Shown in pieces: positions 20,638 through 36,164 of a stretch of DNA of 64,000 bases. The DNA comes from PVC group bacterium. GTDB lineage: Bacteria; Verrucomicrobiota; Kiritimatiellia; CAIKKV01. Position numbers and translations under genes: made by a program. The notes below the pieces were generated by a model that worked only from the letters and a program-made list of their open reading frames with translations, was not told the origin of the DNA and made no database searches. Position 1 is the first letter of the stretch; the number at the start of each line of letters is the position of its first letter. The stretch lies in contig CAMDGM010000006.1 in NCBI GenBank assembly GCA_945898015.1, forward strand, positions 11,032 through 75,031. The letters are read 5' to 3'.

Positions 20638-21741
20638 ATGGGATTTGAAAGCGGAACAATGGGTTTCCGCCTGTTTTATCTGCCCCGCCCCCTGCCCGAT
20701 GACGCCGTCAAGCGGTTTGCCGCCCATGCGGCCTGCGGGCTTGACGCCATCCAGGCGGAGGAAAGCGCGGGCTGGGTGACCGGACGGCACTTGCTGGACA
20801 GGAATATCACGGAAGACTCGATCACCTACGCCGGATACCTGCGCATCACCTTGCGCCAGGGCCAGCGCAAGATTCCCACCTCCCTCCTGCAGGCCGAGTG
20901 CCGCATGGAGGAGCTCGCCGCCTGCGCCGCCGACGGCCACGCCTTCGTCAACCGCCGCAAACGCGCGGAAATCCGCGACGCGGTAACTGAACGGCTCCTG
21001 CCAAACATGCCCCCCCAGCTCAAGGGCATCCCCCTGGTGCACCAGCCCGGCGCCAACATCCTCTATGCCGGCGCCATGAACGACACACAATCCGACCTGC
21101 TCTGCGCGCGTTTCCTGCAAACCATGGGCTACCACCTCATCCCCGTCACCCCGGAGTCGGCCGCCCTCTCCCTCCGCAAGGTGGATGTGCAGGACCTGCT
21201 GCCCGTCAGCTTCTCCCCGGATGTCGACGACGGGCTCATGGAAGCCCAGCCGGGCCGCGACTTTCTCACCTGGCTCTGGTTCAAGGCCGAATCGGGACGG
21301 GGCAACGTGCCCCTGCCGGACATCGGCGAGCTCGGCGTCCTTCTGGAAGGGCCGCTCACCTTCATGCACGAAGGGGACGGCGCGCACGTGATCGTGCTCC
21401 GGAAAGGCGAGCCCATCGGCAGCGCCGAAGCCAAAACCTGCCTGCTGTCAGGCAAGAAGCTCAAACAGTCCCGGCTCACATTCGGCCTGGGCAACGAGCT
21501 GTGGAAGTGCATGTTCGACGCCGACGGCTTCGTCTGCCGCGGCCTCACGGTTCCCGAAGAAGAAGGGAGCCTCGACCCCATGAGCCGTTTCCAGGCCCGG
21601 ATCCGCCAGTTGGATCGCTTCCGGGATATGCTATTCGCGCTCTACGACCGCTTCCTGGAAGAGCGGACCGACAAAGCCGGGTGGCCCGGCGCCAAGAAAA
21701 AGATCCGGGAATGGGCCAAGGCCCGTTCGTCCCGGGTGTAA
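20638..21741 (+). CDS. rdgC: RdgC-like recombination-associated protein
   Basis: The overall pattern matches my recollection of RdgC: an N-terminal FRLFYLPRPLP...ESAGWV block, then RKIPTSLL, then RRKRAEIRDAVTERLLP. GAGGA lies upstream of ATG 20638. Confidence 0.5.
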   Translation: MGFESGTMGFRLFYLPRPLPDDAVKRFAAHAACGLDAIQAEESAGWVTGRHLLDRNITEDSITYAGYLRITLRQGQRKIPTSLLQAECRMEELAACAADGHAFVNRRKRAEIRDAVTERLLPNMPPQLKGIPLVHQPGANILYAGAMNDTQSDLLCARFLQTMGYHLIPVTPESAALSLRKVDVQDLLPVSFSPDVDDGLMEAQPGRDFLTWLWFKAESGRGNVPLPDIGELGVLLEGPLTFMHEGDGAHVIVLRKGEPIGSAEAKTCLLSGKKLKQSRLTFGLGNELWKCMFDADGFVCRGLTVPEEEGSLDPMSRFQARIRQLDRFRDMLFALYDRFLEERTDKAGWPGAKKKIREWAKARSSRV

Positions 21742-21752
21742 GCAAGGTTGAT

Positions 21753-23402
21753 ATGGTTACCAGACTGCTGAAGAAGATTGCCCGCAAAATGTTCGGTTTT
21801 GGAAAATCCAAGGCCCCCTCGAAAGAAGGACACCCCACTCCCGTCAAGCCGCATGCCGATGCCCCGAAGCCTCATGCCCAGCCCGCCACCCCCGACCGCG
21901 GCGAAGCCCCCCGCCCGCCCCGGCGGCCGGCACCCGAAGGCGACCGCGCCCGGTTCGAAGGCCGGCGCGACGACCGCCGCCCCGGCGGCCGGCCCGATGA
22001 CCGCCGGTCCGGCGGACGCCCCGACCGCGGCCCGCGCCGCGACTCCCGTGACAGCGGACCCGGCGATTCCCGCCCGCGACGCCCCGCCATGCTCGACGCC
22101 GCCGGCGGCCCGGCCCCCTCCCGCATCCAGGCCCCCGTCAAACCCGCCGAACCGGCCATCCCCTGGAATCCGGACGAGTTCCAGGTGGCCCCGCAGGAAG
22201 GCAAGGTCCGCTTCCACGACCTGGGCCTGCCGGATCCGATCATGCACGCGATCGCCGACCTGAAATTCGAATATTGCACGGCCATCCAGGGCAAATCGCT
22301 GCCCCTCTCCCTGGCCGGCAAGGACGTGGCCGGCCGCGCCCAGACCGGCACCGGCAAGACCGCCGCCTTCCTGCTCGCCATCCTGAACCAGTTCATCAAG
22401 AAGCCCACCGCCGCCGACCGACCCTTCGGCTCGCCCCGGGCGCTCATGCTGGCCCCCACCCGCGAACTCGTGGTGCAGATCGACAAGGACGCCGCCGCAC
22501 TGAGCAAATACTGCCCCATCAACACCCTGGCCGTCTACGGGGGCATGGAGTTCAAGTCCCAGCAGCGCAAGCTCTCCGAAGGGCATATCGACCTGATCGC
22601 CGCCACCCCGGGCCGGTTGCTCGACTTCTGCGGCCGCAGCGTCATCAACCTGCGGAACATCGAGATCCTCGTGATCGACGAGGCCGACCGGATGCTGGAC
22701 ATGGGCTTCATACCCGATATCCGCCGCATCCTCCGCCAGCTCCCCCCCCGCGACCAGCGCCAGACCATGCTCTTCAGCGCCACGCTGAGCGACGACGTGA
22801 TGCGCCTCGCCTCCCAGTGGATGCGCAACCCCGACATCGTGGAGATCGAGTCCGAACACGTCACCGTGGACTCCGTCAAGCAGATCGTCTACGCCGTCTC
22901 CTCCCGCGACAAGCTCCGCCTCCTGCTCAACCTCATGGAAAAGGAGAACATGGAGCGCGTCCTCATCTTCTCCAACCGCCGGGACGAGACGCGGGAGCTG
23001 ACCGAACGGCTCCATAAAAAAGGCGTCCAGTGCGAGCTCCTCTCCGGCGATGTGCCCCAGGAACGGCGAATGCGGGTGCTGGAAGCCTTCCGCGAAGGCA
23101 AGATCCGCGTGCTCGTGGCCACGGACGTGGCGGGCCGCGGCATTCACGTGGACGGCATCTCGCACGTGGTGAACTACAATCTCCCCTACGAGCCCGAGGA
23201 ATACGTCCACCGCATCGGCCGCACGGGCCGCGTCGGACAGGAGGGCACCGCCATCTCCTTCGCGTGCGAGGACGAATCGTTCGTCCTGCCCGAGATCGAA
23301 AAGTTCATCGGCCGCGAAATTCAGGTCGTCGTTCCCGACGCCGAGCTCCTCCCCCCGCTGCCGCCGCCCCGGGCGCATGAGCACCGGCCTCACGGAAGCT
23401 GA
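21753..23402 (+). CDS. DEAD-box ATP-dependent RNA helicase with an Arg-rich N-terminal extension
   Basis: Q-motif region, AQTGTGKT, VIDEADRMLDMGF, SAT, HRIGRTGR. Start moved to ATG 21753 because the ORF-track start at 21501 overlaps the rdgC-like gene in another frame. Confidence 0.9.
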   Translation: MVTRLLKKIARKMFGFGKSKAPSKEGHPTPVKPHADAPKPHAQPATPDRGEAPRPPRRPAPEGDRARFEGRRDDRRPGGRPDDRRSGGRPDRGPRRDSRDSGPGDSRPRRPAMLDAAGGPAPSRIQAPVKPAEPAIPWNPDEFQVAPQEGKVRFHDLGLPDPIMHAIADLKFEYCTAIQGKSLPLSLAGKDVAGRAQTGTGKTAAFLLAILNQFIKKPTAADRPFGSPRALMLAPTRELVVQIDKDAAALSKYCPINTLAVYGGMEFKSQQRKLSEGHIDLIAATPGRLLDFCGRSVINLRNIEILVIDEADRMLDMGFIPDIRRILRQLPPRDQRQTMLFSATLSDDVMRLASQWMRNPDIVEIESEHVTVDSVKQIVYAVSSRDKLRLLLNLMEKENMERVLIFSNRRDETRELTERLHKKGVQCELLSGDVPQERRMRVLEAFREGKIRVLVATDVAGRGIHVDGISHVVNYNLPYEPEEYVHRIGRTGRVGQEGTAISFACEDESFVLPEIEKFIGREIQVVVPDAELLPPLPPPRAHEHRPHGS

Positions 23403-23437
23403 GTCCTCCGGCCTTCTTGCACACCAAGAGAATAACC

Positions 23438-24229
23438 ATGCCCGCCGCGCAGACCGTAACCTATCGCCGGATCGGCGACACCGCCCTTCAGATGGACGTC
23501 TACACGCCCGAGGCAGGGGCGGGACTCCGGCCGGGCGTGCTCTTCATTCACGGCGGAGGCTGGAGCGGCGGCAATCGGAGCCAGTTCACCTGGCACGCCC
23601 AGGAGCTGGCCAAGGCCGGCTTCGTGACCGCCTCCGCCAGCTACCGCCTGGCGCCGGCCCATCCCTACCCCGCCGCCCTGGACGATTGCCAGGCGGCCAT
23701 GCGCTGGCTGCGCAAGCACGCGGAGGCGCTCCTCCTCGATCCGGCCCGACTCGGCGCCTTCGGCTCCTCCGCCGGCGGCCACCTGGTCGCCTGCCTCGGC
23801 GTGCGGGACACGCGCCTTGATGACGACCCCGCTTTGAGCGGCATTTCCAGCAAGGCGCAAGGCGTTGTCGATGTGCATGGGGTTCACGACTTCGCCGCCT
23901 TGAACGGCGCCCGGCTTCACCCCACGGCGGAGGCGTTTCTCGGGGGATCCCTGGCCGACAAGCCCGAGGCCTGGCGGGAGGCCTCGCCCCTCGCCTTCGT
24001 CGACGCCGACACCGCGCCCATGCTGCTGGTCCACGCGCCGGATGACCCCACCGTGCCCTATGCCCAGAGCACCCGGTTCGCCGACGCGCTGATGGCCGTC
24101 GCGCGCCCCTTCGAGTTCATGCCCACGCCGGGCTCCGGCCATGGCTTTGTTTACAGTCCGGAAAATCCATGGACGCTCCGCGTCTGGCCCCGCGCCGTGG
24201 CCTGGCTGTCCAGCTGGCTGAAACCCTGA
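23438..24229 (+). CDS. alpha/beta-hydrolase fold-3 esterase/lipase
   Basis: FIHGGGW oxyanion motif and the GSSAGGH nucleophile elbow. ATG 23438 preferred over the TTG at 23417. Confidence 0.75.
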   Translation: MPAAQTVTYRRIGDTALQMDVYTPEAGAGLRPGVLFIHGGGWSGGNRSQFTWHAQELAKAGFVTASASYRLAPAHPYPAALDDCQAAMRWLRKHAEALLLDPARLGAFGSSAGGHLVACLGVRDTRLDDDPALSGISSKAQGVVDVHGVHDFAALNGARLHPTAEAFLGGSLADKPEAWREASPLAFVDADTAPMLLVHAPDDPTVPYAQSTRFADALMAVARPFEFMPTPGSGHGFVYSPENPWTLRVWPRAVAWLSSWLKP

Positions 24230-24299
24230 CCGCCTCTTGACTTTAGCCGGAAACCGCACTGGCAACCGACACAACCGGCCACCACAAAAAGCCGGGGAA

Positions 24300-27200
24300 T
24301 CAACGGATATCAGCGTGATATTCCTGGAGGGACTTCACCCCGCCCTTGCCACTCGCCTGGGCCGCCTCAATGCCCTTGACCGCCGCCCGCGCCGCCGCCA
24401 GCGTGGTGATGTAGGGGACCTTGTACTTGATCGCAGTCTTGCGAATGTAGGAGTCGTCGGTCACGCTCTTCTTCCCCGCCGGCGTGTTGATGACAAGCTG
24501 GATCTCCTTGTTCATGATGCCGTCCGCAATGTTGGGCCGGCCCTCCATGAGCTTGTTGATCCGCTCGCACGCCACCCCGTGCTGGGCAAAAAAGGCGTGC
24601 GTCCCTTCGGTGGCCGTGATGCGGAAGCCCAGCTTCACAAACGCCTGGCCCACCTCCAGCGCCACCCCCGTCTTTTCCACCAGGCTCATCAGGACCGTGC
24701 CTTCGCGTGGCAACGCGGACGAGGCCGCCTCCTCCGCCTTGAAAAACGCGAGCCCGAAATTGTCCGCCATCCCCAGCACCTCGCCTGTGGAGCGCATCTC
24801 GGGACCCAGCACCGGATCCACCTCGTGATACTTGTCGAAGGGAAACACGGACTCCTTCACCCCGAAATGCTTGAAGACTTTCGCCTTCAGCTTCAATTCC
24901 GACAGCTTACGGCCCAGCATCAGCTCCGTGGCCGCGCGCGCCATGGACAGCCCGCACACCTTGGAGACCAGCGGCACCGTCCGTGACGCCCGCGGATTGG
25001 CCTCCAGCACGTACACCTGGTCCTTCTCAATGGCGTACTGCATGTTCATCAGCCCCACCACCTTGAGCTCCTGCGCGATGCGGCGCGTGTAGTCGGTGAT
25101 GGTCTTGAGATGCTTCGCGGGAATCGTGACCGGCGGAATCACGCAGGCCGAGTCGCCCGAGTGAATGCCGGCCAGCTCGATATGCTCCATCACGCTCGGC
25201 ACAAACACCTCGACGCCGTCGGACAAGGCATCCGCCTCGCACTCCAGCGCCTCCTGGAGGAACCGGTCAACCAGCAGGGGCTTGTCGGGCGTCACGCCCA
25301 CCGCCTTGCCCACGTACTCCCGCAGCATGGACTCGTCGTACACCACCTCCATGCCGCGCCCGCCGAGCACGAAGGACGGCCGCACCATGAGCGGATACCC
25401 GACCCGCTGCGCGATGACGACGGCCTCCTCGATCGTGGCGGCCATGCCGGACTCCGGCATCGGAATACCGAGCCGCTCCATCTTTTTGCGGAACAGGTCG
25501 CGATCTTCGGCAATGGTGATGGCCTCGATGCTGGTGCCGAGGATCTTCACGCCCGCCCGCTCCAGGTCCGCCGCAATGTTGAGGGGGGTTTGCCCGCCGA
25601 ACTGCACAATCACGCCCGCCGGCTTCTCCTTTTCATAGATGCTGAGCACATCCTCGACCGTCAGCGGCTCGAAGTAAAGCTTGTCGGAGGTGTCGTAGTC
25701 CGTGGACACCGTTTCGGGGTTGCAGTTGACCATGATGGTCTCGTACCCGAATTCGCGCATGGCCAGGGCGGCATGCACGCAGCAGTAGTCGAATTCGATG
25801 CCCTGCCCGATCCGGTTCGGCCCGCCGCCCAGGATCATGATCTTCTTGGGGTTCGCCGAGACGGGGGACGCCCCCGACTTCACGTAGCTCGAATAATAAT
25901 ACGCCGCGTTCTCCACGCCGCTGACCGGCACGGCATGCCAGCTCTCAACGCAGCCCAGCGCCTTGCGCTTTTCCCGGATGGCCGACTCCGGAACCCTCAG
26001 GATCGTGGCCAGATACTTGTCCGCAAAGCCGTCCTTCTTGGCCTGCACCAGGAGCTCGTCCGGCGGCAGCCCGCCCTTGTAGGCCAGCACGCGCTCCTCC
26101 AGCTCCACCAGCTCCTTCATCTGCTGAAGGAACCACGTCTTGATGTGGGTCAGGCGGAACAGCTCGCCGAGATCCGCGCCCTTGCGCAGGGCCTCGTACA
26201 GGATGAACTGGCGCTCGCTGGTGGGCTCCTGCAGCAAGGTCATCAGCTCGGGCAGCGATTTGCGGTTGAAGTCCTTCGCAAAGCCCAGGCCGTGCCGCCC
26301 GTTTTCGAGCGAGCGCATCGACTTCTGGAAGGACTCCTTGTAGGTCTTGCCGATGCTCATCACCTCGCCCACGGCGCGCATCTGCGTGCCCAGCTTGTCC
26401 TGCACGCCCTTGAACTTCTCGAAGGCCCAGCGGGAAAACTTGACGACCACATAGTCGCCCGACGGGGAATACTTCTCCAGCGTGCCGTCACGCCAGTAGG
26501 GAATATCGTCCAGCGTCAGCCCGCCGGCCAGCTTGGCCGACACCAGCGCGATGGGGAACCCGGTGGCCTTGGACGCGAGCGCCGAGGACCGCGACGTGCG
26601 CGGGTTGATCTCGATGATGACGATGCGGCCGGTCTTCGGGTCGTGCGCGAACTGGACGTTCGTGCCGCCGATCACGCCGATGGATTCCACGATCCGGAAC
26701 GCCTGCTCCTTCAGCTTGTCCTGCACCGCCTGCGAAATGGTCAGCATGGGCGCCGAGCAGAAGGAGTCGCCCGTATGCACCCCCATGGCGTCGATGTTCT
26801 CGATGAAGCACACCACGATCATCTGGTTCTTGGCGTCGCGCACGACCTCGACTTCCAGCTCCTCCCAGCCGAGCACGGACTCCTCCACCAGCACCTGGCC
26901 GATCAGGGAGGCGGCCAGGCCGCGGCTGCACACGACGCGCAACTCCTCGACGTTGTAGACGAGCCCGCCCCCGGTGCCGCCCATGGTGTAGGCGGGCCGG
27001 AGCACGACCGGATAGCCGAGCACGGCGGCGACCTTTTCGGCCTCTTCCACCGTATACGCCAGGTCGCTCTTCGGCATTTCAATGCCGAGCCCCTTCATGG
27101 TTTCCTTGAAAATGAGCCGGTCCTCGCCGCGCGCAATGGCGTCCAGGTTGACCCCGATCACCTTGACCCCGTATTTCTCCAGCACACCGGCCTTGTCCAG

Positions 27201-27503
27201 CTCGGAGGACAGGTTCAGCCCTATCTGCCCGCCCAGATTAGGCAGCAGGGCGTCGGGCCGCTCCTTCTCGATGATCTGGGTGATCCGCTCCACATTCAAC
27301 GGCTCGATGTACGTGGCGTCCGCCATGCCGGGGTCCGTCATGATGGTGGCCGGATTGGAATTGACCAGCACGATCTGGTACCCCATCCCGCGCAGGGCCT
27401 TACAGGCCTGGGTACCGGAATAATCGAATTCGCAGGCCTGTCCGATGACAATCGGTCCAGATCCAATGATCAGCACTTTGTGGATGTCGTTGCGTCGCGG
27501 CAT
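24300..27503 (-). CDS. carB: carbamoyl-phosphate synthase large subunit
   Basis: 1067 aa. Duplicated ATP-grasp halves and an MGS-like C-terminus. N-terminus MPRRNDIHKVLIIGSGPIVIGQACEFDYSGTQA. AAGGAG RBS. Confidence 0.95.
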   Translation of the reverse strand: MPRRNDIHKVLIIGSGPIVIGQACEFDYSGTQACKALRGMGYQIVLVNSNPATIMTDPGMADATYIEPLNVERITQIIEKERPDALLPNLGGQIGLNLSSELDKAGVLEKYGVKVIGVNLDAIARGEDRLIFKETMKGLGIEMPKSDLAYTVEEAEKVAAVLGYPVVLRPAYTMGGTGGGLVYNVEELRVVCSRGLAASLIGQVLVEESVLGWEELEVEVVRDAKNQMIVVCFIENIDAMGVHTGDSFCSAPMLTISQAVQDKLKEQAFRIVESIGVIGGTNVQFAHDPKTGRIVIIEINPRTSRSSALASKATGFPIALVSAKLAGGLTLDDIPYWRDGTLEKYSPSGDYVVVKFSRWAFEKFKGVQDKLGTQMRAVGEVMSIGKTYKESFQKSMRSLENGRHGLGFAKDFNRKSLPELMTLLQEPTSERQFILYEALRKGADLGELFRLTHIKTWFLQQMKELVELEERVLAYKGGLPPDELLVQAKKDGFADKYLATILRVPESAIREKRKALGCVESWHAVPVSGVENAAYYYSSYVKSGASPVSANPKKIMILGGGPNRIGQGIEFDYCCVHAALAMREFGYETIMVNCNPETVSTDYDTSDKLYFEPLTVEDVLSIYEKEKPAGVIVQFGGQTPLNIAADLERAGVKILGTSIEAITIAEDRDLFRKKMERLGIPMPESGMAATIEEAVVIAQRVGYPLMVRPSFVLGGRGMEVVYDESMLREYVGKAVGVTPDKPLLVDRFLQEALECEADALSDGVEVFVPSVMEHIELAGIHSGDSACVIPPVTIPAKHLKTITDYTRRIAQELKVVGLMNMQYAIEKDQVYVLEANPRASRTVPLVSKVCGLSMARAATELMLGRKLSELKLKAKVFKHFGVKESVFPFDKYHEVDPVLGPEMRSTGEVLGMADNFGLAFFKAEEAASSALPREGTVLMSLVEKTGVALEVGQAFVKLGFRITATEGTHAFFAQHGVACERINKLMEGRPNIADGIMNKEIQLVINTPAGKKSVTDDSYIRKTAIKYKVPYITTLAAARAAVKGIEAAQASGKGGVKSLQEYHADIR

Positions 27504-27625
27504 GGGAGGTCTCCTTGGGTTAGGCGGACCTTATAACGGAGGGGGGAGGGAAATCAAACCAAAACGACAATGATGAAGGATTCGCCATTTTTGTAGCGTT
27601 TTCGGGCGCCACGCCCGCGCTCGAA

Positions 27626-28555
27626 TCAGATCCTTTTGACCGGCACACGAGTTTGGGCGGCCACTGTTTCCAGCCAGCGGCTGACCTCGGATTCATCCGG
27701 GAAGCGGCTCTCCCGCAAACGGCTTTCCTTGCCCAGCCGGTCGCACTTGGCTTCGCCCAGGGGATGGTAGGGCATCAGGTTAACCTCCTGAACATGGCGC
27801 AACCCGTTAGCCAAGTCCGCAATCGCCCGCAAATGCCCGTCCCGTGCGTTATAGCCGGGCACGAGGGGACACCGCAGCACCAGCGCCGCGCCTCGCTCAT
27901 CCAGTCGTCTCAGGTTGTCAAGTATCGCGTCAGGCGGCACGCCCGTGAACTCGCGGTGCCGGACCGGGTCCGACTCCTTGTAGTCGTAAAGAAAGACATC
28001 GGTCACCTCCAGCATTTGCTCGTACTGCTCCCAGGCGGCAAACCCGCAGGTTTCCAGACACACATGCAGTCCCGCCTCCTTGGCCGCCCGCGCCAGAGCC
28101 AGGGTGAAGGCAAACTGGGCCATCGGCTCGCCGCCCGAAAGCGTCATCCCGCCGCCCGAGGTCTCGTAGAACGGCTTGTCCTGCAGGACCTCCTGAAGAA
28201 CCGACTCCACCGTCCGGTCCTTGCCGATCACCTCCAGCGCGCGGACCGGACACGACGCGGCGCAGGCTCCGCACCGGAGGCAGCCCTCGCGACGGAAGAG
28301 CCGCCGCCCCGCCTCCATCGCCTGGCACTGGCGCGGACACGCCGCGAGACAGCGGCCGCACCCGATGCACAACCCGGGGTTCATCGCGATCTCCACGCCG
28401 CAGTCCTGTGACTCGGGGTTGTGGCACCACGCGCACCGCAACGGGCAGCCTTTGAGGAAGACCGTCGTCCGGATCCCGGGGCCGTCATGGATCGAAAACC
28501 GCTGAATATCATAGACCCAACCGGTCACGGGCGGTGGTTCGACGCCCCGGGTCAT
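27626..28555 (-). CDS. glycyl-radical enzyme activating protein (radical SAM)
   Basis: CPLRCAWCHNPES (CX3CX2C) plus two ferredoxin-type motifs, CIGCGRCLAACP and CLRCGACAASCP. Start ATG 28555 overlaps the GRE stop (ATGA). Confidence 0.85.
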   Translation of the reverse strand: MTRGVEPPPVTGWVYDIQRFSIHDGPGIRTTVFLKGCPLRCAWCHNPESQDCGVEIAMNPGLCIGCGRCLAACPRQCQAMEAGRRLFRREGCLRCGACAASCPVRALEVIGKDRTVESVLQEVLQDKPFYETSGGGMTLSGGEPMAQFAFTLALARAAKEAGLHVCLETCGFAAWEQYEQMLEVTDVFLYDYKESDPVRHREFTGVPPDAILDNLRRLDERGAALVLRCPLVPGYNARDGHLRAIADLANGLRHVQEVNLMPYHPLGEAKCDRLGKESRLRESRFPDESEVSRWLETVAAQTRVPVKRI

Positions 28556-30705
28556 AGGGTCTGCTCGGTGCGGGCGATGACCATGTCCTGCCAGTCCCGG
28601 GCCAGGGTGGCAAATCGGGCGGACCATCCCGAGACCCGCACAGACAGGTTCGGATACAGCTCCGGATGCTCCTGCGCCGCGCGCAGCAGCGCGCCGTCCA
28701 CCACATCGATCTGCATGAAGATGCCGCCCAGCCGGACAAAGGCGCGCATCAGCCCGGCTAACGCCTGGAGGCCCGTCTCCCCCCGGACGCTGGCCGGCAG
28801 GATCTTGAGGTCGAGCGCCGTGCCGCAGGGCAGCTTCGAAAAATCGACCGAGCAGTGCGACTTGATGACGGCGGTCGGCCCGCGCTGGTCGGTTCCGGGC
28901 GACGGCGAGAAGTTCGGCGCCAGGATCGCCCCCTTCTTCCGGCCGGAGGCGGTCGCCGTGCGATGCGGCAAAAAGCCCGATCCCTCGCGACCGAAGGTGC
29001 TGATGCCCGCCGGCCGCAACACCCCGTGCCGCTCCCGCGTCGCGCCCACCAGGTCCGTGAAATCATTGAAGACCCGCTGAAGCAGCGCATCGGCCTCGGC
29101 GTTGTCGTTGCCATAGAAATCAAAATCGGCCTGGATCCGCCGCCGCAGGAGTTCCTGCCCCTCCCAATCGCTCGACAGGACCTCGGCCAGCCGGGACAGG
29201 GTCAGGCTCTTCTCTTCGTAGACCAGCCGGCGAATGACCAACAGGCTGTTGGCGACGTCGGGAAGACCGCCGGCATGCGGCGACCGCACGGTATAGCAGG
29301 GTCCGCCGTCGAGATAACTGCGGCCGCGCTCCACGCACCCGTCCACAAGCAGGGAGAACAGGGGGCAGGGCGCCTTGTCGAACGGACGTTCGTCCAGCAA
29401 CCGGTTCACTTCGCGTGCCAGGCGGGACTTGAAATCGGCATAAAGGGCCTCGAAATCGGCGAAACACTCCAGCGTCCCGGCTCCCCGCGGGCGGGCGATC
29501 CACTCCGTGCATTCGGCTTTGTTCTGGCGCGGACTGGCTTCGGCCGCCGACACCCCCAGGGTCTCCTGAAGCAGCAGCAGGGCGTCGAACGGCTGATACC
29601 CAAACCGGGTCTTGCCGGGGATGAGAATTTCCCAGCATCCGTCGTTGGCGTAGTTGCGCGCCTCCTCAAGCGGATACCCGAACCGGACAAGGGACGGAAT
29701 GATGCGGTCGTCGTTGTACACCGCCACGATGCCACCGCCCAGGCGCTGAAGGGTCGCAATGCGGTGCAGGAGCCACTCCGGCGTGTCGGCGGCGATGCGC
29801 ACCGCGATCGGGAAATCGCTGATGTGGAGCTCTTCAACCACATCGAGGACCAGGCCGGTCACCTCGTTGAGCACCGGGACGCCGGCCTCATCCACGCCGG
29901 CCAGGATGATGTTCTGGTAAAACTGGGCGTCGCCGCTTCCCCGGTCCTGGGCCGTGATCCATTCGCATCCCTTGATCCAGAAGTGGGCGAGCAGTTCGCG
30001 GGCCTCGTCAATCGAGATGAGGCCGGCCTCCAGATCGCGCCGGAGGAACGGGCCGAGCATCTTGTCGATCCGGCCGAGGCCGCTCCAGTTGCCGCATAGC
30101 CGCTGGAAATCCCAGAGCAGCCAGAGCGCCTGCACCGCCTCCCGGAAGGTTTCTGGCGGATTCTCGGGAACGCGGCGCAACGCCGCCAGCACGCCGGCGT
30201 AATGGCGCTTGTCCTCTCCAGCCGAATCGGAGACGAGCTGCTCCACGGCCGCGACATAGCGGGCCTGCCAGACCGCCGCCGCCTCCAGGCAGACCCGCAT
30301 GGCGCGAAGCAGGTCCTCGCCCTCCTCATCCAGTCCGCCGCGCCGCATCCGGGCCTCGATCTCCGCCCGGATGCCCCGGTAGCCGACCTGCATCGCCTTT
30401 TCGAATCCGAGGGTCGAGTGGCTGAGCGACCCGAACGGGGTCGCCGGCATACGGTGCTGCATCGCCTCTTTCAGGGTGGCGGCGCCCACCAGCCGCTCGC
30501 CGGGCAGAATGCGCAGCGGAGCCTGGGCCGCAATCAGGCGGACGGCCTCGGCATAATGCCGGTTGGGTGTCGGCGCCTGAGCGAGAAACTCCGGAGCCGG
30601 GGTGAAGGCGACCGGCTGGATGGCGCGGCCGATCCGGCCCGACAGGTAGTGATCCGCCAGCTCGTGCGTGGCAAGGCTCAGGCGCGCAGTTTTCTTGTCC
30701 GGCAT
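28552..30705 (-). CDS. glycyl-radical enzyme, PFL2/dehydratase-lyase class, substrate unknown
   Basis: C-terminal glycine-radical motif VRVSGWSARFATL, thiyl loop YANDGCWEILIPG (C-x-E), FREAVQALWLLW block, AGGAGGA RBS. At 717 aa it is shorter than typical members. Confidence 0.85.
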   Translation of the reverse strand: MPDKKTARLSLATHELADHYLSGRIGRAIQPVAFTPAPEFLAQAPTPNRHYAEAVRLIAAQAPLRILPGERLVGAATLKEAMQHRMPATPFGSLSHSTLGFEKAMQVGYRGIRAEIEARMRRGGLDEEGEDLLRAMRVCLEAAAVWQARYVAAVEQLVSDSAGEDKRHYAGVLAALRRVPENPPETFREAVQALWLLWDFQRLCGNWSGLGRIDKMLGPFLRRDLEAGLISIDEARELLAHFWIKGCEWITAQDRGSGDAQFYQNIILAGVDEAGVPVLNEVTGLVLDVVEELHISDFPIAVRIAADTPEWLLHRIATLQRLGGGIVAVYNDDRIIPSLVRFGYPLEEARNYANDGCWEILIPGKTRFGYQPFDALLLLQETLGVSAAEASPRQNKAECTEWIARPRGAGTLECFADFEALYADFKSRLAREVNRLLDERPFDKAPCPLFSLLVDGCVERGRSYLDGGPCYTVRSPHAGGLPDVANSLLVIRRLVYEEKSLTLSRLAEVLSSDWEGQELLRRRIQADFDFYGNDNAEADALLQRVFNDFTDLVGATRERHGVLRPAGISTFGREGSGFLPHRTATASGRKKGAILAPNFSPSPGTDQRGPTAVIKSHCSVDFSKLPCGTALDLKILPASVRGETGLQALAGLMRAFVRLGGIFMQIDVVDGALLRAAQEHPELYPNLSVRVSGWSARFATLARDWQDMVIARTEQTL

Positions 30706-30719
30706 GCTATCTCCTCCTG

Positions 30720-30783
30720 TTTCATATACAATAGACCGAATCTCGTACGGAATCCATTGACAGGCATATCCATTTCATATACA
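30720..30783. promoter_or_regulatory. pair of 11-bp direct repeats in the GRE/AraC divergent intergenic region (candidate operator)
   Basis: TTTCATATACA occurs at 30720-30730 and again at 30773-30783, 53 bp apart. A perfect TTGACA at 30757-30762 precedes the second repeat, which could serve as a -10 (TATACA, 15-nt spacer). Confidence 0.3.
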
Positions 30784-30814
30784 GAACTATTGATCGTTAA
30801 ACGAAAGGTCGACC

Positions 30815-31666
30815 ATGAATCCGATCGAGGCCATACCGATCCAGGCGTTGACGGTCGAGCTGTGCACAGCCGGCAGTCTCGACAGCCTGCTCGCCGGGGT
30901 GGCGCATCGCAAAACCTGTCCATACACCATTCTGGCCCAGGCGGTTCAGGGACGCTATGAGATCACCTGCGGCGACGGACGGCACGAGACCCTGGCCGAA
31001 GGCGAGGCGTTCCTGACCGGCGCGAACCTCCCGCTGCATATTCTCCATCACGGCGACCCGAAAAAGGCCTTCCGCATGCGGGCCCGGTGGATCCACATTC
31101 ATTTCACGATCTTTGGCGCCCTGGACGTGACATCGTTGCTGGCCCTGCCGCTGCGGGTGACCCGGCGACAAGGCGAGCCCTTCGCCGCCGTGATCGAGGC
31201 TCTCCTGCAGGACCGTCAAACGCCGAAAACCTCGGTGGCATGGCTGGCGCATCGCCATGAACTGGCGTTTCGAGCCCTGCGCCTGCTGGGCGAACTGGCG
31301 CCGTGGCGGGAGAACGCCCTGGAACGGCTCCGTCATAAAGACCGGCTGGAGCCTGTCCTCGCGTTCATGAAGGAGCACCTGGCGGACACGCTGACCGTCG
31401 CCGACCTGGCCCGGAAAGCCAACCTCTCACCTCCCCGGTTTCACGCATTTTTCAGGGAACTCATGGGGCGATCGCCCATGCACCATCTGAAACAGCTTCG
31501 ACTTTCGGAAGCCTGCCGCCTGCTGGCGGCCGACCGCGAACCCCTCCGGGTCGTCGCCGCGAAATCGGGATTCTGCAACGAGTTCCACCTCAGCCGGGAA
31601 TTCCGGGCCGTATTCGGAAAACCGCCCGGCGGCTGGCGCCGGGAGTATGATCGCAACCTGGCCTGA
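30815..31666 (+). CDS. AraC-family transcriptional regulator
   Basis: C-terminal double HTH LTVADLARKANLSPPRFHAFFRELMGRSPMHHLKQLRL...GFCNEFHLSREFRAVFGKPP, and a cupin-like N-terminal half. Confidence 0.85.
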   Translation: MNPIEAIPIQALTVELCTAGSLDSLLAGVAHRKTCPYTILAQAVQGRYEITCGDGRHETLAEGEAFLTGANLPLHILHHGDPKKAFRMRARWIHIHFTIFGALDVTSLLALPLRVTRRQGEPFAAVIEALLQDRQTPKTSVAWLAHRHELAFRALRLLGELAPWRENALERLRHKDRLEPVLAFMKEHLADTLTVADLARKANLSPPRFHAFFRELMGRSPMHHLKQLRLSEACRLLAADREPLRVVAAKSGFCNEFHLSREFRAVFGKPPGGWRREYDRNLA

Positions 31667-31676
31667 CCGCCAGGCT

Positions 31677-32040
31677 CATCTCTGAGTTTTGGCACGTTCT
31701 CTTTGCGATTGTGTTGTCAGTTGAGCTGAGTTCGGCGTTTCGGCCGCGGGCTGGTGCGCGACTACGGCTTCCATGAGGAAGCCCGTTCGGCAAAAAGAAG
31801 GACAGTCAACGGGCTGTTCTTGGGGAACCAACTCGCGCGCCGCCCGAGGCACATCGGCAGATGGCCAGGGCGCGCGATGGCTCGGGGGGTGTGCCGTTTC
31901 GATCAGGCGGACCTGGCCGAGTTGATTTTGAGGCGTAGGCGGTTGACGGCGATGCGACGTGGCCTATAGGCCCGGCGCATCCAGCCGGAAACCGGATACG
32001 CCCAAAAGCAACCGGCAGGGGACGCCCGAAACGGCGCAAC
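31677..32040. repeat. copy B of the ~360-bp GC-rich noncoding element (single-module form)
   Basis: Aligns with 4456-4538 plus 4711-4986. It begins 11 nt after the AraC stop codon. The right-hand inverted repeat is not recognisable here. Confidence 0.8.
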
Positions 32041-32135
32041 CGGAACAACCCGCCACCAACCTCAACCCTGCGGCTCGGACAACGCCTCGCCTTACAGACA
32101 TTCACACCGGACTGACAACGAATCGTGTCAAACGT

Positions 32136-33110
32136 TCACGCACCCGTTCGCGGATTGAACTCCGTTTTCGCGGCCACCTGCTCCCACAGCTTCCGCTGCT
32201 CCGCCGTCACCTGCGCCGGCACCTGGATGGACACCACGGCGTACAGGTCACCCCGAGTCCCGCCGGCCACCGGCAGGCCCAGGCCCCGCAACCGGAATTG
32301 ACGACCCGCCACCGTGCCTGCCGGGATTTTCAGGGACGCCGGACCATCCAGCGCCGGGATGGACACCGTGGCGCCGAGGATCGCCTCCCACGGGGACAGC
32401 TCCAGCTCGTGATGCAGGCTGGAACCGCGCACCCGGAAATCGGGATGACTCGCAAACTTAACGCGTAAATACAAATGGCCGGGCTCGCCCCCGCCGATCC
32501 CTTCCTGACCCTTGCCGGCCAGCCGGATGCGCTGCCCGTCCCGGACGCCGGGCGGAATCTTCACCGCCAGCGTCTGGATGGCCGACTGCCCCGTGCGCGG
32601 ATCCGGGCGCTGAAGCCGGATCGTGCGCGTCGACCCGCCCACCGCCTCATCGAGCGTAACCACGATGTCGCTCTCGATGTCCTGTCCGCGCTGGGCCATC
32701 GGTTCGTCGCCAAACCCATACGCCCCCCCGCTCCGGCCGGCGCCGCCAAAATCGCGCCCGCCGCGGCCGAAGAACTGCTCGAAGAAATCGCTGAACCCCG
32801 TGCCTTCGAAATGAAACTGGGAACCCTCCTCGAACCCGCGGCCGGAAAACCCCCGCTGCCGGGCGGCCTCCCGCTCGGGATGATTCCAATTAGCCCCCAG
32901 TTCGTCGTATTTCCGCCGCTTATCCGGATCGCTGAGCACCTCGTTGGCCTCGTTGATCTCCCGGAACTTCTCCTCGGCCACCCGCTTGTCCTTGGCCACG
33001 TCGGGATGGTATTTGTTCGCGAGCGTGCGGAACGCCTTCTTGATGTCCGCTTCGCTGGCGCTGGACGGAACGCCCAGCACCTCATAATAATCTTTGAATT
33101 TAACGGCCAT
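32136..33110 (-). CDS. cbpA: J-domain co-chaperone, CbpA type (no zinc-finger region)
   Basis: [32 protein letters not shown]-domain, a G/F-rich linker, DnaJ C-terminal domains, no CxxCxGxG repeats. CAGGAG RBS. Confidence 0.75.
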
Positions 33111-33139
33111 GCGTCACTCCTGAAAAACAAGGGGCTTGC

Positions 33140-33949
33140 TCATGAATAGCTCTGGGCATCGGCGGGAAAACGGCCCGTCCGGACCTCGTCGCGATAGGCG
33201 GACAAAGCCTGGCGCATGACGGCGCCCACCTCGCCATAGCGCTTGACGAATTTCGGAACCGCCTCCGCCGGCGTCATGCCGAACATATCGTGACAGACCA
33301 GAATCTGGCCATCGCAATCGGGGCCCGCCCCGATGCCGATGGTGGGCACGCGAACCGCGGCGGTCAATTCCGCCCCCAGCTCGCGGGGCACGCACTCCAG
33401 CACAATGGCGAACACGCCGGCCTTTTCGAGCGCCCGGGCATCCGCCAGCAGCCGCTCCGCCTCTTCCGGGCGGCGGCCCTGGACCTTATACCCGCCCAGC
33501 TCCCGCAGGCTTTGCGGCGTGAGCCCGATGTGCCCCAGCACGGGAATCCCGTTCTGCACCAGCGCGGTAATGGTATCCGCCCGCAGCGCCCCGCCCTCCA
33601 GCTTCACCGCCCCCACCCCGCCCTCTTTCACGAACCGGCCCGCGTTCTGAAGCGCCTGCTCGCGGGACACCTGATAGGACATGAAAGGCATGTCCCCCAC
33701 CACCAGGGCCGACCGGACCGCGCGCGACACCGCCGCACTGTGGTCCAGCATCTGCTCCAGGGTCACAGGCAGGGTCGTCTCGTACCCGAGCATGGCCATG
33801 CCCAGCGAATCGCCCACCAGCACCAGCGGAAGGGCCGCCTCGTCCACCAGCCGGGCGGTGAAATAGTCATACGCGGTCAGGCACGCGAATTTTTCGCGCC
33901 CCTTGAGCGCCTTGATTTTGGACGCCGTCCATTTCACGATGTCTGCCAT
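33140..33949 (-). CDS. panB: 3-methyl-2-oxobutanoate hydroxymethyltransferase
   Basis: CLTAYDYFTARLVDEA...LVGDSLGMAMLGY...GDMPFMSYQ hallmark blocks. GGGAGG RBS. Confidence 0.9.
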   Translation of the reverse strand: MADIVKWTASKIKALKGREKFACLTAYDYFTARLVDEAALPLVLVGDSLGMAMLGYETTLPVTLEQMLDHSAAVSRAVRSALVVGDMPFMSYQVSREQALQNAGRFVKEGGVGAVKLEGGALRADTITALVQNGIPVLGHIGLTPQSLRELGGYKVQGRRPEEAERLLADARALEKAGVFAIVLECVPRELGAELTAAVRVPTIGIGAGPDCDGQILVCHDMFGMTPAEAVPKFVKRYGEVGAVMRQALSAYRDEVRTGRFPADAQSYS

Positions 33950-33965
33950 GGAGCCTCCCGTTTCG

Positions 33966-34463
33966 TTACCAATCTCCGTTCCACACCCGCACGCCGTCCA
34001 GGGGCAGGGCCGCCAGCGCCTCGCGCACGGTTCGCCGGCTTCCCGGCGGCGCCAGGTCCGGCCTCACGCCGGCCAGCGGCTCCAGCACAAACCGCCGGAC
34101 GCTCCACCGCGGATGCGGCACCACCAGGTCCGGCTCGTTGACTGTGCAGGAACCCGCATAAAGAATGTCGATGTCGAGAGGCCGGGGGCCATTCCGCACG
34201 CCCGGCTTCCGGCCGGCGGCCTTTTCAATGCCCCGGGTCGCGGCCAGCAAGTCCCGCACGGAGCCCGGCCATTCCACAATGACCACGGCGTTTAAAAAAG
34301 TCCGGTTCCGGAAATCCTCCGGCACATCGACCGGCTCGGTGTCATAGACGCGGGACTTGGCAAGAACCTGCAGCCCGGGCAACGCCGCGAGCCGGCGAAC
34401 CGCCTGACGCAGGTGGCCCATCCGGTTGCCCCGGTTGGATCCCAGGCTCAACCCCGATTCCAT
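33966..34463 (-). CDS. folK: 2-amino-4-hydroxy-6-hydroxymethyldihydropteridine diphosphokinase
   Basis: LSLGSNRGN...FLNAVV...GPRPLDIDIL...VPHPRWSVRRFVLEPL HPPK pattern. Confidence 0.9.
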   Translation of the reverse strand: MESGLSLGSNRGNRMGHLRQAVRRLAALPGLQVLAKSRVYDTEPVDVPEDFRNRTFLNAVVIVEWPGSVRDLLAATRGIEKAAGRKPGVRNGPRPLDIDILYAGSCTVNEPDLVVPHPRWSVRRFVLEPLAGVRPDLAPPGSRRTVREALAALPLDGVRVWNGDW

Positions 34464-34470
34464 AGGTCCT

Positions 34471-35274
34471 CTACTTCAGGCCCAGCACGTCCTGCATATC
34501 GTACAACCCGGGCGCGCGGCCCGTCACCCACCGCGCGGCCAGCACCGCGCCGGGCGCGAACGCTTCCCGGCCCGACGCCCGATGGGTCAATTCCACACGC
34601 TCCCCCGCCGCGGCAAAAAGCACCGTGTGGTCGCCCACCACGTCCCCGCCCCGGATGGCGTGAATGCCGATTTCACCCCGGGGCCGTTCGCCCGTGATGC
34701 CGTGTCGGCCATACACCGCCACCCGGTCCAGCTCCTGCTGCCGGCCCGCGGCCGCGGCTTTGGCCAGACTCAAGGCCGTGCCGCTCGGCGCGTCCTTCTT
34801 GAAATGGTGATGAGCTTCGACAATCTCAATGTCGTAGTCCGGGCCCAGCGCCTTGGCGGCCTGCTGCACCAGTGAAAAAAGCAGGTTCATGCCCAGGCTG
34901 TAGTTGGAGGCCCAGACCACCGGCACGTGCGCGGCCACCTCGCGAACCCGGGCGGACTCGGCGGCATCGAGACCCGTCGTGCCGAGCACCAGGGCCTTGC
35001 CCAGTTCGGCGCACAGCGCCGCGTTACCGGGCGCCGCCGTATGAAAGGTGAAGTCGATCGCCACATCCGCCGCCATCAGCGCGGCCCGGGTATCGGCGCC
35101 AATCCGCACACCGATGTCCCCGATTCCGGCGGCCAGGCCCGCGTCCCGCCCCACCCAGGGATTGGCGGGAATCTCCACGGCGGACACCAGCGCCACGCCC
35201 TCCGCCGCGCGGCTGGCGCGCACCAGCGCCTGGCCCATGCGGCCGGCTGCTCCCACTATTGCCACCTTGATCAT
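34471..35274 (-). CDS. dapB: 4-hydroxy-tetrahydrodipicolinate reductase
   Basis: MIKVAIVGAAGRMGQ... and EIVEAHHHFKKDAPSGTAL. Start trimmed from ORF-track 35499 to ATG 35274 (GGGAGA RBS). Confidence 0.9.
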   Translation of the reverse strand: MIKVAIVGAAGRMGQALVRASRAAEGVALVSAVEIPANPWVGRDAGLAAGIGDIGVRIGADTRAALMAADVAIDFTFHTAAPGNAALCAELGKALVLGTTGLDAAESARVREVAAHVPVVWASNYSLGMNLLFSLVQQAAKALGPDYDIEIVEAHHHFKKDAPSGTALSLAKAAAAGRQQELDRVAVYGRHGITGERPRGEIGIHAIRGGDVVGDHTVLFAAAGERVELTHRASGREAFAPGAVLAARWVTGRAPGLYDMQDVLGLK

Positions 35275-35291
35275 ACCGTCTCCCGTTTCGC

Positions 35292-36164
35292 TCAGCCCGT
35301 GACGAGCCCGAGCGCCGCCAATGTGCTCCGAAGTTTCGCGCGGGGACCGGGCGCCATCTCGCAGAGCGGCAACCGGTAAACCTCCTCGATCAGCCCGGCC
35401 ATGGCCATGGCCGCCTTCACGGGAATCGGATTGGTGTCCAGGAACAGATCGGTGAACAGCGAAAACAGCCGGTCGTGCATCACCCGGGCTTTCAGCCACT
35501 CATTATTCCGGGCCGCACGAACCATCTCCGCCACGGGCCCGGGCGCAATGTTGGACGCCACGCTGATCACCCCCTCGGCCCCGCACACCATCATGGGCAG
35601 GGTCAGGGAATCGTCCCCGCACAGCACGGTCATGCCGCAGGCGGCCCGGATCCGGCTGACCCGCTCCACGCTGCCCCCGGCCTCCTTGACCGCCACCACC
35701 TTGGGGTGCCGGGCCAGCTCCGCGACTGTCGCCACCTCGATTTCCCGGCACGACCGGCCGGGCACATTGTACAGCACCACGGGCAGTCCGAGATCGGCCA
35801 CGGCCGAAAAATGCCGGATCAGGCCTGTCTGACTGGGCTTGTTGTAATACGGCGTCACCTGCAGCGTGCCATCGGCGCCAACATCCATCGCGTGCCGGGT
35901 CAATTCGATGGCTTCGGACGTGGCGTTGCCGCCCGTGCCCGCAATCACCTTCGCCCGGCCGCGGGCGGCCTTGACGACCACCTCGATGACCTTTTTGTGC
36001 TCGTCATAATCCAGCGTGGGCGATTCGCCGGTGGTACCCACGGGCACCAGGCCGTCAATGCCGGCCGCCAGTTGCAACTCCACCAGCTCCTGGAGCTTGC
36101 GGTAATCCACGGCGCCCGCAGACGTGAACGGCGTCACGAGCGCGGTATATGTTCCTTCAAACAT
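35292..36164 (-). CDS. dapA: 4-hydroxy-tetrahydrodipicolinate synthase
   Basis: TALVTPF...GLVPVGTTGESPTL...YNKP...LYNVPGR pattern. AAGGAG RBS. Confidence 0.9.
   Translation of the reverse strand: MFEGTYTALVTPFTSAGAVDYRKLQELVELQLAAGIDGLVPVGTTGESPTLDYDEHKKVIEVVVKAARGRAKVIAGTGGNATSEAIELTRHAMDVGADGTLQVTPYYNKPSQTGLIRHFSAVADLGLPVVLYNVPGRSCREIEVATVAELARHPKVVAVKEAGGSVERVSRIRAACGMTVLCGDDSLTLPMMVCGAEGVISVASNIAPGPVAEMVRAARNNEWLKARVMHDRLFSLFTDLFLDTNPIPVKAAMAMAGLIEEVYRLPLCEMAPGPRAKLRSTLAALGLVTG

Follow-up and report, generated by a model that had tools for sequence, protein, structure and literature searches.

The characterised glycyl radical enzymes (GREs) comprise, according to a review of June 2026, the glycerol and propanediol dehydratases (GD and PD), HpfG, HypD, HpyG, HpzG, CutC, IslA/IseG, HpsG and HplG, together with YbiW, PflD, the decarboxylases, the X-succinate synthases and the formate lyases, and whole GRE clades remain without experimental validation (PMC13450708). 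All characterised 1,2-eliminases and isomerases share a Cys-x-Glu (CXE) motif, whose Glu hydrogen-bonds a hydroxyl group of the substrate, and in GD the residue His164 is the proposed acid that protonates the leaving hydroxyl (PMC13450708). The window discussed here, a stretch of 64,000 nucleotides from a PVC (Planctomycetota-Verrucomicrobiota-Chlamydiota) group bacterium of the Kiritimatiellia (assembly GCA_945898015.1, contig CAMDGM010000006.1, positions 11,032 to 75,031), encodes an oxygen-sensitive GRE of 717 amino acids (aa), accompanied by the genes of its activating enzyme and of an AraC-family regulator. This GRE is a member of a large, strongly conserved and uncharacterised clade, here called the NDGCWE/SGW clade, and this membership is what is new relative to an earlier note on the same DNA, which was made from the letters without database searches.

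We put at about 0.6 the probability that the enzyme performs a CXE-type radical C-O cleavage, in which a hydroxylated and probably glycan-derived metabolite is either dehydrated or isomerised with opening of a ring. This reading is favoured because of the CXE motif, the alignment of His96 with a catalytic His, the best matches to PD and GD, the glycan-degrading habit of the hosts, the occasional coupling to glycosidase genes and the presence of an AraC regulator. We infer from comparisons of this kind which class of reaction is catalysed, what part each residue plays and what sort of compound serves as substrate. Because the clade is large and has no characterised member, the enzyme's substrate almost certainly differs from those already assigned to GREs.

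More than 120 protein clusters (90% level) are 58-79% identical to the 717-aa GRE, and when each GTDB species was scanned through a single genome, 347 genomes proved to carry the clade. The carriers include members of the Lentisphaerota, Kiritimatiellia, Phycisphaerae, Armatimonadota, Hydrogenedentota, Anaerolineales, Poribacteria, Sumerlaeota and Bacteroidales, the last including Alistipes hominis New-7, an isolate cultured from the gut; they are described as glycan-degrading anaerobes and come from sediments, digesters and guts. The NDGCWE loop is kept in 78 of 78 full-length copies, the STFGR[EQ] motif in 76 of the 78 and the Trp of the GNWSG strand (Trp207) in nearly all of them, and H96, C357, E359 and G693 are invariant in alignment A1. 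Two homologues of 857-890 aa (P0087 and P0109) have an insertion of about 150 residues past the N-terminal helix, which has no Pfam match. The earlier note had called the enzyme an orphan, a description that suits its genomic context and does not suit the protein, which belongs to this large conserved clade. The review mentions nothing that resembles the clade (PMC13450708), and no characterisation was found in the literature on the clade, or on its hosts, combined with glycyl radical enzymes.

The relation to the characterised GREs is distant. All the NCBIfam models of these enzymes score well under their cut-offs for the 717-aa GRE, namely HypD (NF043068, 295 bits against a cut-off of 1100), YbiW-type (NF007437, 253 against 1109), HpsG (NF048011, 238 against 1000), HpfG (NF048009, 233 against 1000) and CutC (TIGR04394, 233 against 1050). 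The comparisons included every GRE listed in the review that has a solved structure, and for HpfG, of which no structure has been solved, its NCBIfam model was used. In single-sequence comparisons with the solved structures, HypD, PD, CutC and GD are roughly equidistant (240-254 bits), and in the tree the tight NDGCWE/SGW clade is set apart from E. coli YbiW/PflD by a stem about 3.9 substitutions per site long. The formate lyases (PFL and TdcE) were tried and rejected as candidates: the model TIGR01255 gives 66 bits against a cut-off of 994, and the loop has no adjacent Cys-Cys, only a lone Cys followed by Trp-Glu. The earlier note had read this loop as Cys-x-Glu and not as Cys-Cys, and C357-W358-E359 in the sequence bears this out. 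It had also held that tight clustering with a characterised GRE clade would overturn its reading; no such clustering was found, as judged from the equivalog scores, the identities of 20-25% and the long stem, and on this point its reading therefore stands.

The structure was modelled with AlphaFold2 from an alignment of 25 sequences (pLDDT 81, pTM 0.85) and compared with the solved eliminases and isomerases by Foldseek, which gave TMq values of 0.75-0.84 at 20-25% identity. The predicted fold is the 10-stranded GRE barrel of the eliminase/isomerase kind. The top matches by both profile and fold are the propanediol dehydratases (5i2a and 9rco) and the glycerol dehydratase 1r8w.

The coordinates of the cassette and of the motifs within the GRE are collected in Table 1. 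The GRE scores 299 bits with PF02901 and 76 bits with PF01228 (cut-off 22), and its two diagnostic motifs fall at residues 354-359 (NDGCWE) and 690-698 (RVSGWSARF); the glycine-radical motif (VRVSGWSARF) and the NDGCWE loop named in the earlier note were thus both located in a protein with the matching Pfam domains. Its start codon is preceded by a AGGAGGAG ribosome-binding site, and upstream of 30705 there is no further start codon in its frame. The stop codon of the GRE and the start codon of the activase overlap as ATGA at 28552-28555, and the activase begins at that ATG. The activase scores 340 bits with TIGR02494 (cut-off 174) and has the motif CPLRCAWC at residues 37-44 and two CxxCxxCxxxC motifs at residues 63-73 and 92-102. 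Because it combines this CX3CX2C motif with two auxiliary cluster motifs, it is of the three-cluster type, and the three-cluster, ATGA-coupled activase of the earlier note is thereby confirmed. The genome has 3.29 Mb in 72 contigs and is about 90% complete; within it, the GRE is the sole protein with a Gly_radical domain and the protein encoded beside it is the sole bona fide GRE activase. With its activase and regulator, the intact GRE forms a predicted working cassette of three genes.

Table 1. Features of the GRE locus, with positions in the window.
Feature	Position	Strand	Evidence
GRE (P0001), 717 aa, uncharacterised NDGCWE/SGW clade	28552..30705	-	PF02901 8.7e-89, PF01228 3.6e-21
GRE-activating radical S-adenosylmethionine enzyme, 309 aa, three [4Fe-4S] motifs	27626..28555	-	TIGR02494, motif positions
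AraC-family regulator, 283 aa, divergent from the GRE gene	30815..31666	+	HTH_18 and HTH_AraC
AraC-GRE divergent control region, 109 bp	30706..30814	.	two direct TTTCATATACA repeats and the GRE ribosome-binding site
SLSHSTLGF strand with His96	30403..30429	-	aligns with catalytic His164 of GD (1r8w, 5i2a, 9rco and YbiW alignments)
CGNWSGLGR barrel strand with Trp207	30070..30096	-	position of GD Ser282
Cys loop NDGCWE, with putative thiyl Cys357, putative general base Glu359, and Trp358 replacing the usual Val	29629..29646	-	
PAGISTFGRE, family-specific strand	28984..29013	-	position of substrate-lining strand (GD Tyr640 region)
Glycyl radical loop RVSGWSARF, with Gly693	28612..28638	-	invariant in alignment A1

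The residues of the active site were mapped by sequence and profile alignments, which leave a two-residue uncertainty in the register of the GNWSG strand. The Cys loop of the clade presents the CXE motif as C357-W358-E359, with CWE where CVE is usual. His96 aligns with His164 of GD and with the corresponding His of the PD dehydratase and YbiW, so that the place of the catalytic His of GD is occupied by a His, and the motifs YQN and PGKT are common to the window GRE, GD and PD.

The same column of the alignment bears on a different reading, in which the enzyme would be a 1,2-eliminase that cleaves C-N or C-S bonds, like choline lyase or the sulfonate lyases. The CXE motif also occurs in CutC, IslA and HpsG, and in the latter two Gln193 and Gln187, respectively, are the glutamines that bind the sulfonate (PMC13450708). 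By index arithmetic on the ends of the profile alignments, the His96 column holds these two Gln residues, and Gly92, four residues before His96, takes the place of IslA Arg189. The invariant His of the clade in the column of the sulfonate-lyase Gln therefore groups it with the C-O cleaving enzymes, and the sulfonate GREs (IslA/IseG, HpsG and HpfG) were rejected as candidates on these two positions of the Arg/Gln/Arg sulfonate triad and on equivalog scores that fall short of the cut-offs. The invariant Arg573 of the STFGRE strand could bind an anion, and sulfatases are found among the neighbours of the clade; these, however, are abundant background genes in the phyla concerned, no sulfite- or amine-handling neighbour was seen in the 81 loci described below, and the CutC, HpsG and HpfG equivalogs give 233-238 bits where 1000-1050 are required. 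A C-N or C-S cleaving reaction thus seems quite improbable.

For the favoured C-O cleavage, the following mechanism can be proposed. The AraC regulator would sense a small molecule and switch on the two-gene operon, after which the activase, with S-adenosylmethionine and its iron-sulfur clusters, would put the radical on Gly693. The radical would move from Gly693 to Cys357, and the resulting thiyl would abstract a hydrogen atom from a hydroxyl-bearing carbon of the substrate. Glu359 would deprotonate the hydroxyl, and the ketyl radical so formed would expel the adjacent oxygen-linked leaving group. His96 would serve as the acid in this step, and Cys357 would then return the hydrogen atom to the product radical. 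The whole reaction would run in the open cytoplasm and not inside a microcompartment.

The earlier note had remarked on the shortness of the enzyme, and the solved relatives are indeed longer (776-850 aa). The GRE is short because about 70 residues of GD and PD (GD ~90-158) are absent ahead of the strand with the His: in the profile alignments with both dehydratases they form a single compact gap that follows the N-terminal hairpin and precedes the first barrel strand, which bears the catalytic histidine. A peptide of about 20 residues found at the N-terminus of many members of the clade is also missing from the window's copy. In GREs the substrate channel adjoins the loop after the first barrel strand (PMC13450708), and given this position the deletion may reshape the access of the substrate.

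The genomic context was compared across 81 loci of the clade, in which open reading frames (ORFs) were called and clustered on up to 10 kb per side and the Pfam families of the first and second neighbours were tallied. Just two genes recur as neighbours: an AraC orthologue in divergent orientation, in about 26 loci and mainly in the PVC subclade that contains the window, and a downstream activase in about 24. In some 55 loci no activase is encoded in the DNA examined, which is up to 10 kb per side and less where a contig ends earlier, and in all 15 of the genomes with such loci that were tested a bona fide TIGR02494 activase is encoded elsewhere. In one genome (G014) the same contig carries the unlinked activase at a distance of about 430 kb. 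Sulfatases, transporters of the major facilitator superfamily and assorted glycoside hydrolases are scattered among the neighbours at a background-like frequency. The whole clade lacks an informative context, and the view of the earlier note that the substrate cannot be inferred holds across the 81 loci, which have no recurrent informative neighbours.

A few loci couple the GRE tightly to glycoside hydrolase (GH) genes. In a member of the Lentisphaerae (L051:12146-15019, + strand) the activase is fused to a DUF2961/GH172 domain in a protein of 958 aa, and in Victivallis (L015:12192-14237, +) a GH172 gene starts 2 nucleotides past the stop codon of the GRE. In a member of the Armatimonadia (L047:12106-14058, +) the GRE overlaps by ATGA the gene of a 651-aa protein with PKD and inosine-uridine nucleoside hydrolase-like domains, and GH123-like and GH43-like genes are tightly coupled to the GRE in a few loci. 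The coupled glycosidases hint at glycan-derived, perhaps furanosidic, substrates, without defining a pathway. The Bacteroidota loci were also considered as candidate polysaccharide utilisation loci, and this was rejected, as their contexts are unlike one another and have no shared theme: one is starch-like, with SusD/E/F and GH13, another has GH97, an esterase, a pyruvyl-transferase-like protein and a sulfatase, and others have beta-propellers. Beta-propeller genes follow the GRE in Bacteroidales whether or not an activase is present, as in Odoribacter (L069:13004-13939, +), where the product is Mala_s_1-like, and in Alistipes hominis (L081:12706-15229, +), where two DUF5128 six-bladed propellers are encoded.

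Several observations weigh against the proposed cleavage of a glycan-derived metabolite. Neither a substrate nor a product nor a downstream enzyme can be named, and apart from the AraC gene and the activase no neighbour recurs in the 81 loci. The link to GH172 is seen in just 2 of the 81, in host genomes that are rich in glycosidases anyway. Ser282 and Asp447 of GD, which we take from the structure 1R9D to bind the diol, are replaced by Trp207 (or by Gly209, depending on the register) and by Gln371, so that the diol-binding residues are not kept; the register of the GNWSG strand varies, and two of three alignments place Trp207 at Ser282. Finally, the position of GD Tyr640, presumably another residue of the substrate pocket, falls in the clade-specific strand PAGISTFGRE, which AlphaFold2 models with low confidence. 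As far as the alignments tell, the clade keeps the catalytic residues but alters other diol-binding positions.

These positions also bear on the main rival explanation, a known reaction on a divergent scaffold. In this case the enzyme would be a B12-independent dehydratase of a small diol (1,2-propanediol, glycerol or ethylene glycol) that passes its aldehyde product to unlinked dehydrogenases. Such a role would fit the top profile and fold matches to PD and GD and the shared His96, YQN and PGKT, and a small substrate would be in keeping with Trp207 and Trp358 in the pocket. Furthermore, the host phyla degrade fucose-rich glycans, GH95/fucosidase genes occur among the neighbours, and 1,2-propanediol arises from fucose and rhamnose. 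However, the generic subfamily model for glycerol/propanediol dehydratases, TIGR01774, gives 343 bits against a cut-off of 678, the identity to GD and PD is 23-25%, Ser282 and Asp447 are both replaced, the genome has no shell gene, and no aldehyde or alcohol dehydrogenase recurs beside the GRE in the 81 loci. On this evidence we regard a divergent small-diol dehydratase as unlikely.

Within the favoured C-O cleavage, a more specific proposal can be made tentatively, although it is on balance doubtful: the clade might perform a GRE reaction not yet described, the ring opening or dehydration of a glycan product of the furanose or anhydro-sugar type, with the two clade-specific tryptophans stacking on the ring of the sugar. 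If so, the anaerobic breakdown of glycans in PVC bacteria, Armatimonadota and Bacteroidales would include a widespread cytoplasmic step that has so far gone unseen, and the dedicated AraC regulator would have the sugar in question as its effector.

Regulators of the AraC family typically govern the catabolism of sugars. In the regulator of the window, HTH_18 and HTH_AraC cover residues 185-276 only, and the N-terminal effector domain has no match to a known family. The 109-bp spacer between the regulator and the GRE contains two exact direct TTTCATATACA repeats, at 30720-30730 and 30773-30783, 53 bp apart; genome-wide, 3 exact matches were found where about 0.19 are expected, 2 of them in this spacer. 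The core GTATAT recurs in the corresponding spacer of six orthologous loci (L002, L004, L005, L015, L016 and L021). A search of the whole genome for a regulon with the TGTATATGAAA repeat found a sole other exact match, located inside an ORF (contig C48, position 1846), and no second paired repeat site in a promoter-like position. The regulator therefore appears to act only locally, and no wider regulon was found. A scan for promoters and terminators gave nothing above chance. An AraC-family gene, yijO, likewise adjoins pflD in E. coli K-12 (L089:6467-7318), and the two regulators are alike only in the DNA-binding domain (25% identity over 111 residues).

On the other side of the cassette lies carB (24300-27503, -), and the further flanking genes with a family match are housekeeping genes, namely a DEAD-box helicase gene, a DnaJ-like gene, panB, folK, dapB and dapA. 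An ORF of 294 aa between the helicase gene and carB (23390-24274, -) has no Pfam or NCBIfam match and may be either a spurious ORF of high GC content or an unknown gene. Among the flanking ORFs scanned (21501-36164) there are no genes for microcompartment shells, aldehyde or alcohol dehydrogenases, or transporters, in agreement with the earlier note, which had found only the AraC gene and carB as neighbours. The bacterial microcompartment shell domain PF00936 is absent across the ~90%-complete genome, and the locus accordingly does not qualify as a GRE-associated microcompartment (GRM).

The closest copy of the GRE, 81% identical, is found in another family of the same order, and the copies within the same genus are either 52% identical or absent (G042, G029, G018 and G019). 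This patchy distribution among relatives suggests that the cassette was acquired by lateral transfer. It might also be taken, together with the position of the cassette amid housekeeping genes, to mean that the GRE is a decaying or non-catalytic remnant of such a transfer. This explanation is barely credible, given that the reading frame is intact, the ribosome-binding site is strong, the GRE and activase are translationally coupled, the catalytic motifs are invariant, and the genome retains an activase whose only possible client is the window GRE. The ratio of nonsynonymous to synonymous substitution rates (dN/dS) between the GRE and its closest orthologues is 0.16-0.21, from which purifying selection on the GRE is evident.

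To our knowledge, each newly characterised GRE has exposed a hidden anaerobic pathway, as was the case for choline's conversion into trimethylamine, the use of hydroxyproline, the conversion of sulfonate to sulfide, and anhydroglycolysis. The existence of an unassigned GRE clade is unsurprising; its breadth is unusual. The compact arrangement of regulator, operator, enzyme and activase offers a convenient entry point to the function, and the regulator could serve as a biosensor of the substrate.

Among the named systems, the glycerol dehydratase of C. butyricum (1R8W/1R9D) and the propanediol dehydratases (R. inulinivorans 5I2A/5I2G; 9RCO) have the barrel fold in common with the window GRE (TMq 0.78-0.83), and also the Gly loop, the Cys-x-Glu loop, the catalytic His of the first strand, YQN, PGKT and a three-cluster activase. 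Unlike these enzymes, to which it is 23-25% identical, the window GRE is without the segment corresponding to GD ~90-158, has CWE instead of CVE, PAGISTFGRE in place of the Tyr640 strand, Trp207 for Ser282 and Gln371 for Asp447, and stands in no microcompartment or aldehyde-handling context. YbiW and PflD, the E. coli GRE isomerases that open the ring of 1,5-anhydrohexitol-6-phosphate (8ID7, 8ID0 and 8YJO), share with it the CXE motif and the His, 30% identity over 602 columns, sugar-utilising hosts and a nearby AraC-type gene (yijO by pflD), but they are separated from it by the very long stem, and the window locus has no phosphotransferase system, aldolase or phosphatase neighbours. HypD, the trans-4-hydroxy-L-proline dehydratase (6VXC/6VXE), is the best single-sequence match among the solved structures (254 bits) and the top NCBIfam equivalog for both the GRE (295 bits against 1100) and the activase (315 against 425), both under the cut-off; its Asp278, however, aligns with Ser208 of the window GRE, which has no proline-pathway context. 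A last partial match is PFL2 of Archaeoglobus fulgidus (2F3O), a solved GRE of debated function and without an assigned reaction (PMC13450708). Its radical glycine is followed by a Trp (RVAGWSAYF), and it has a DGCVE loop; unlike the window GRE, it keeps the N-terminal segment. Its score with the profile is 326 bits, and the fold alignment gives 25% identity.

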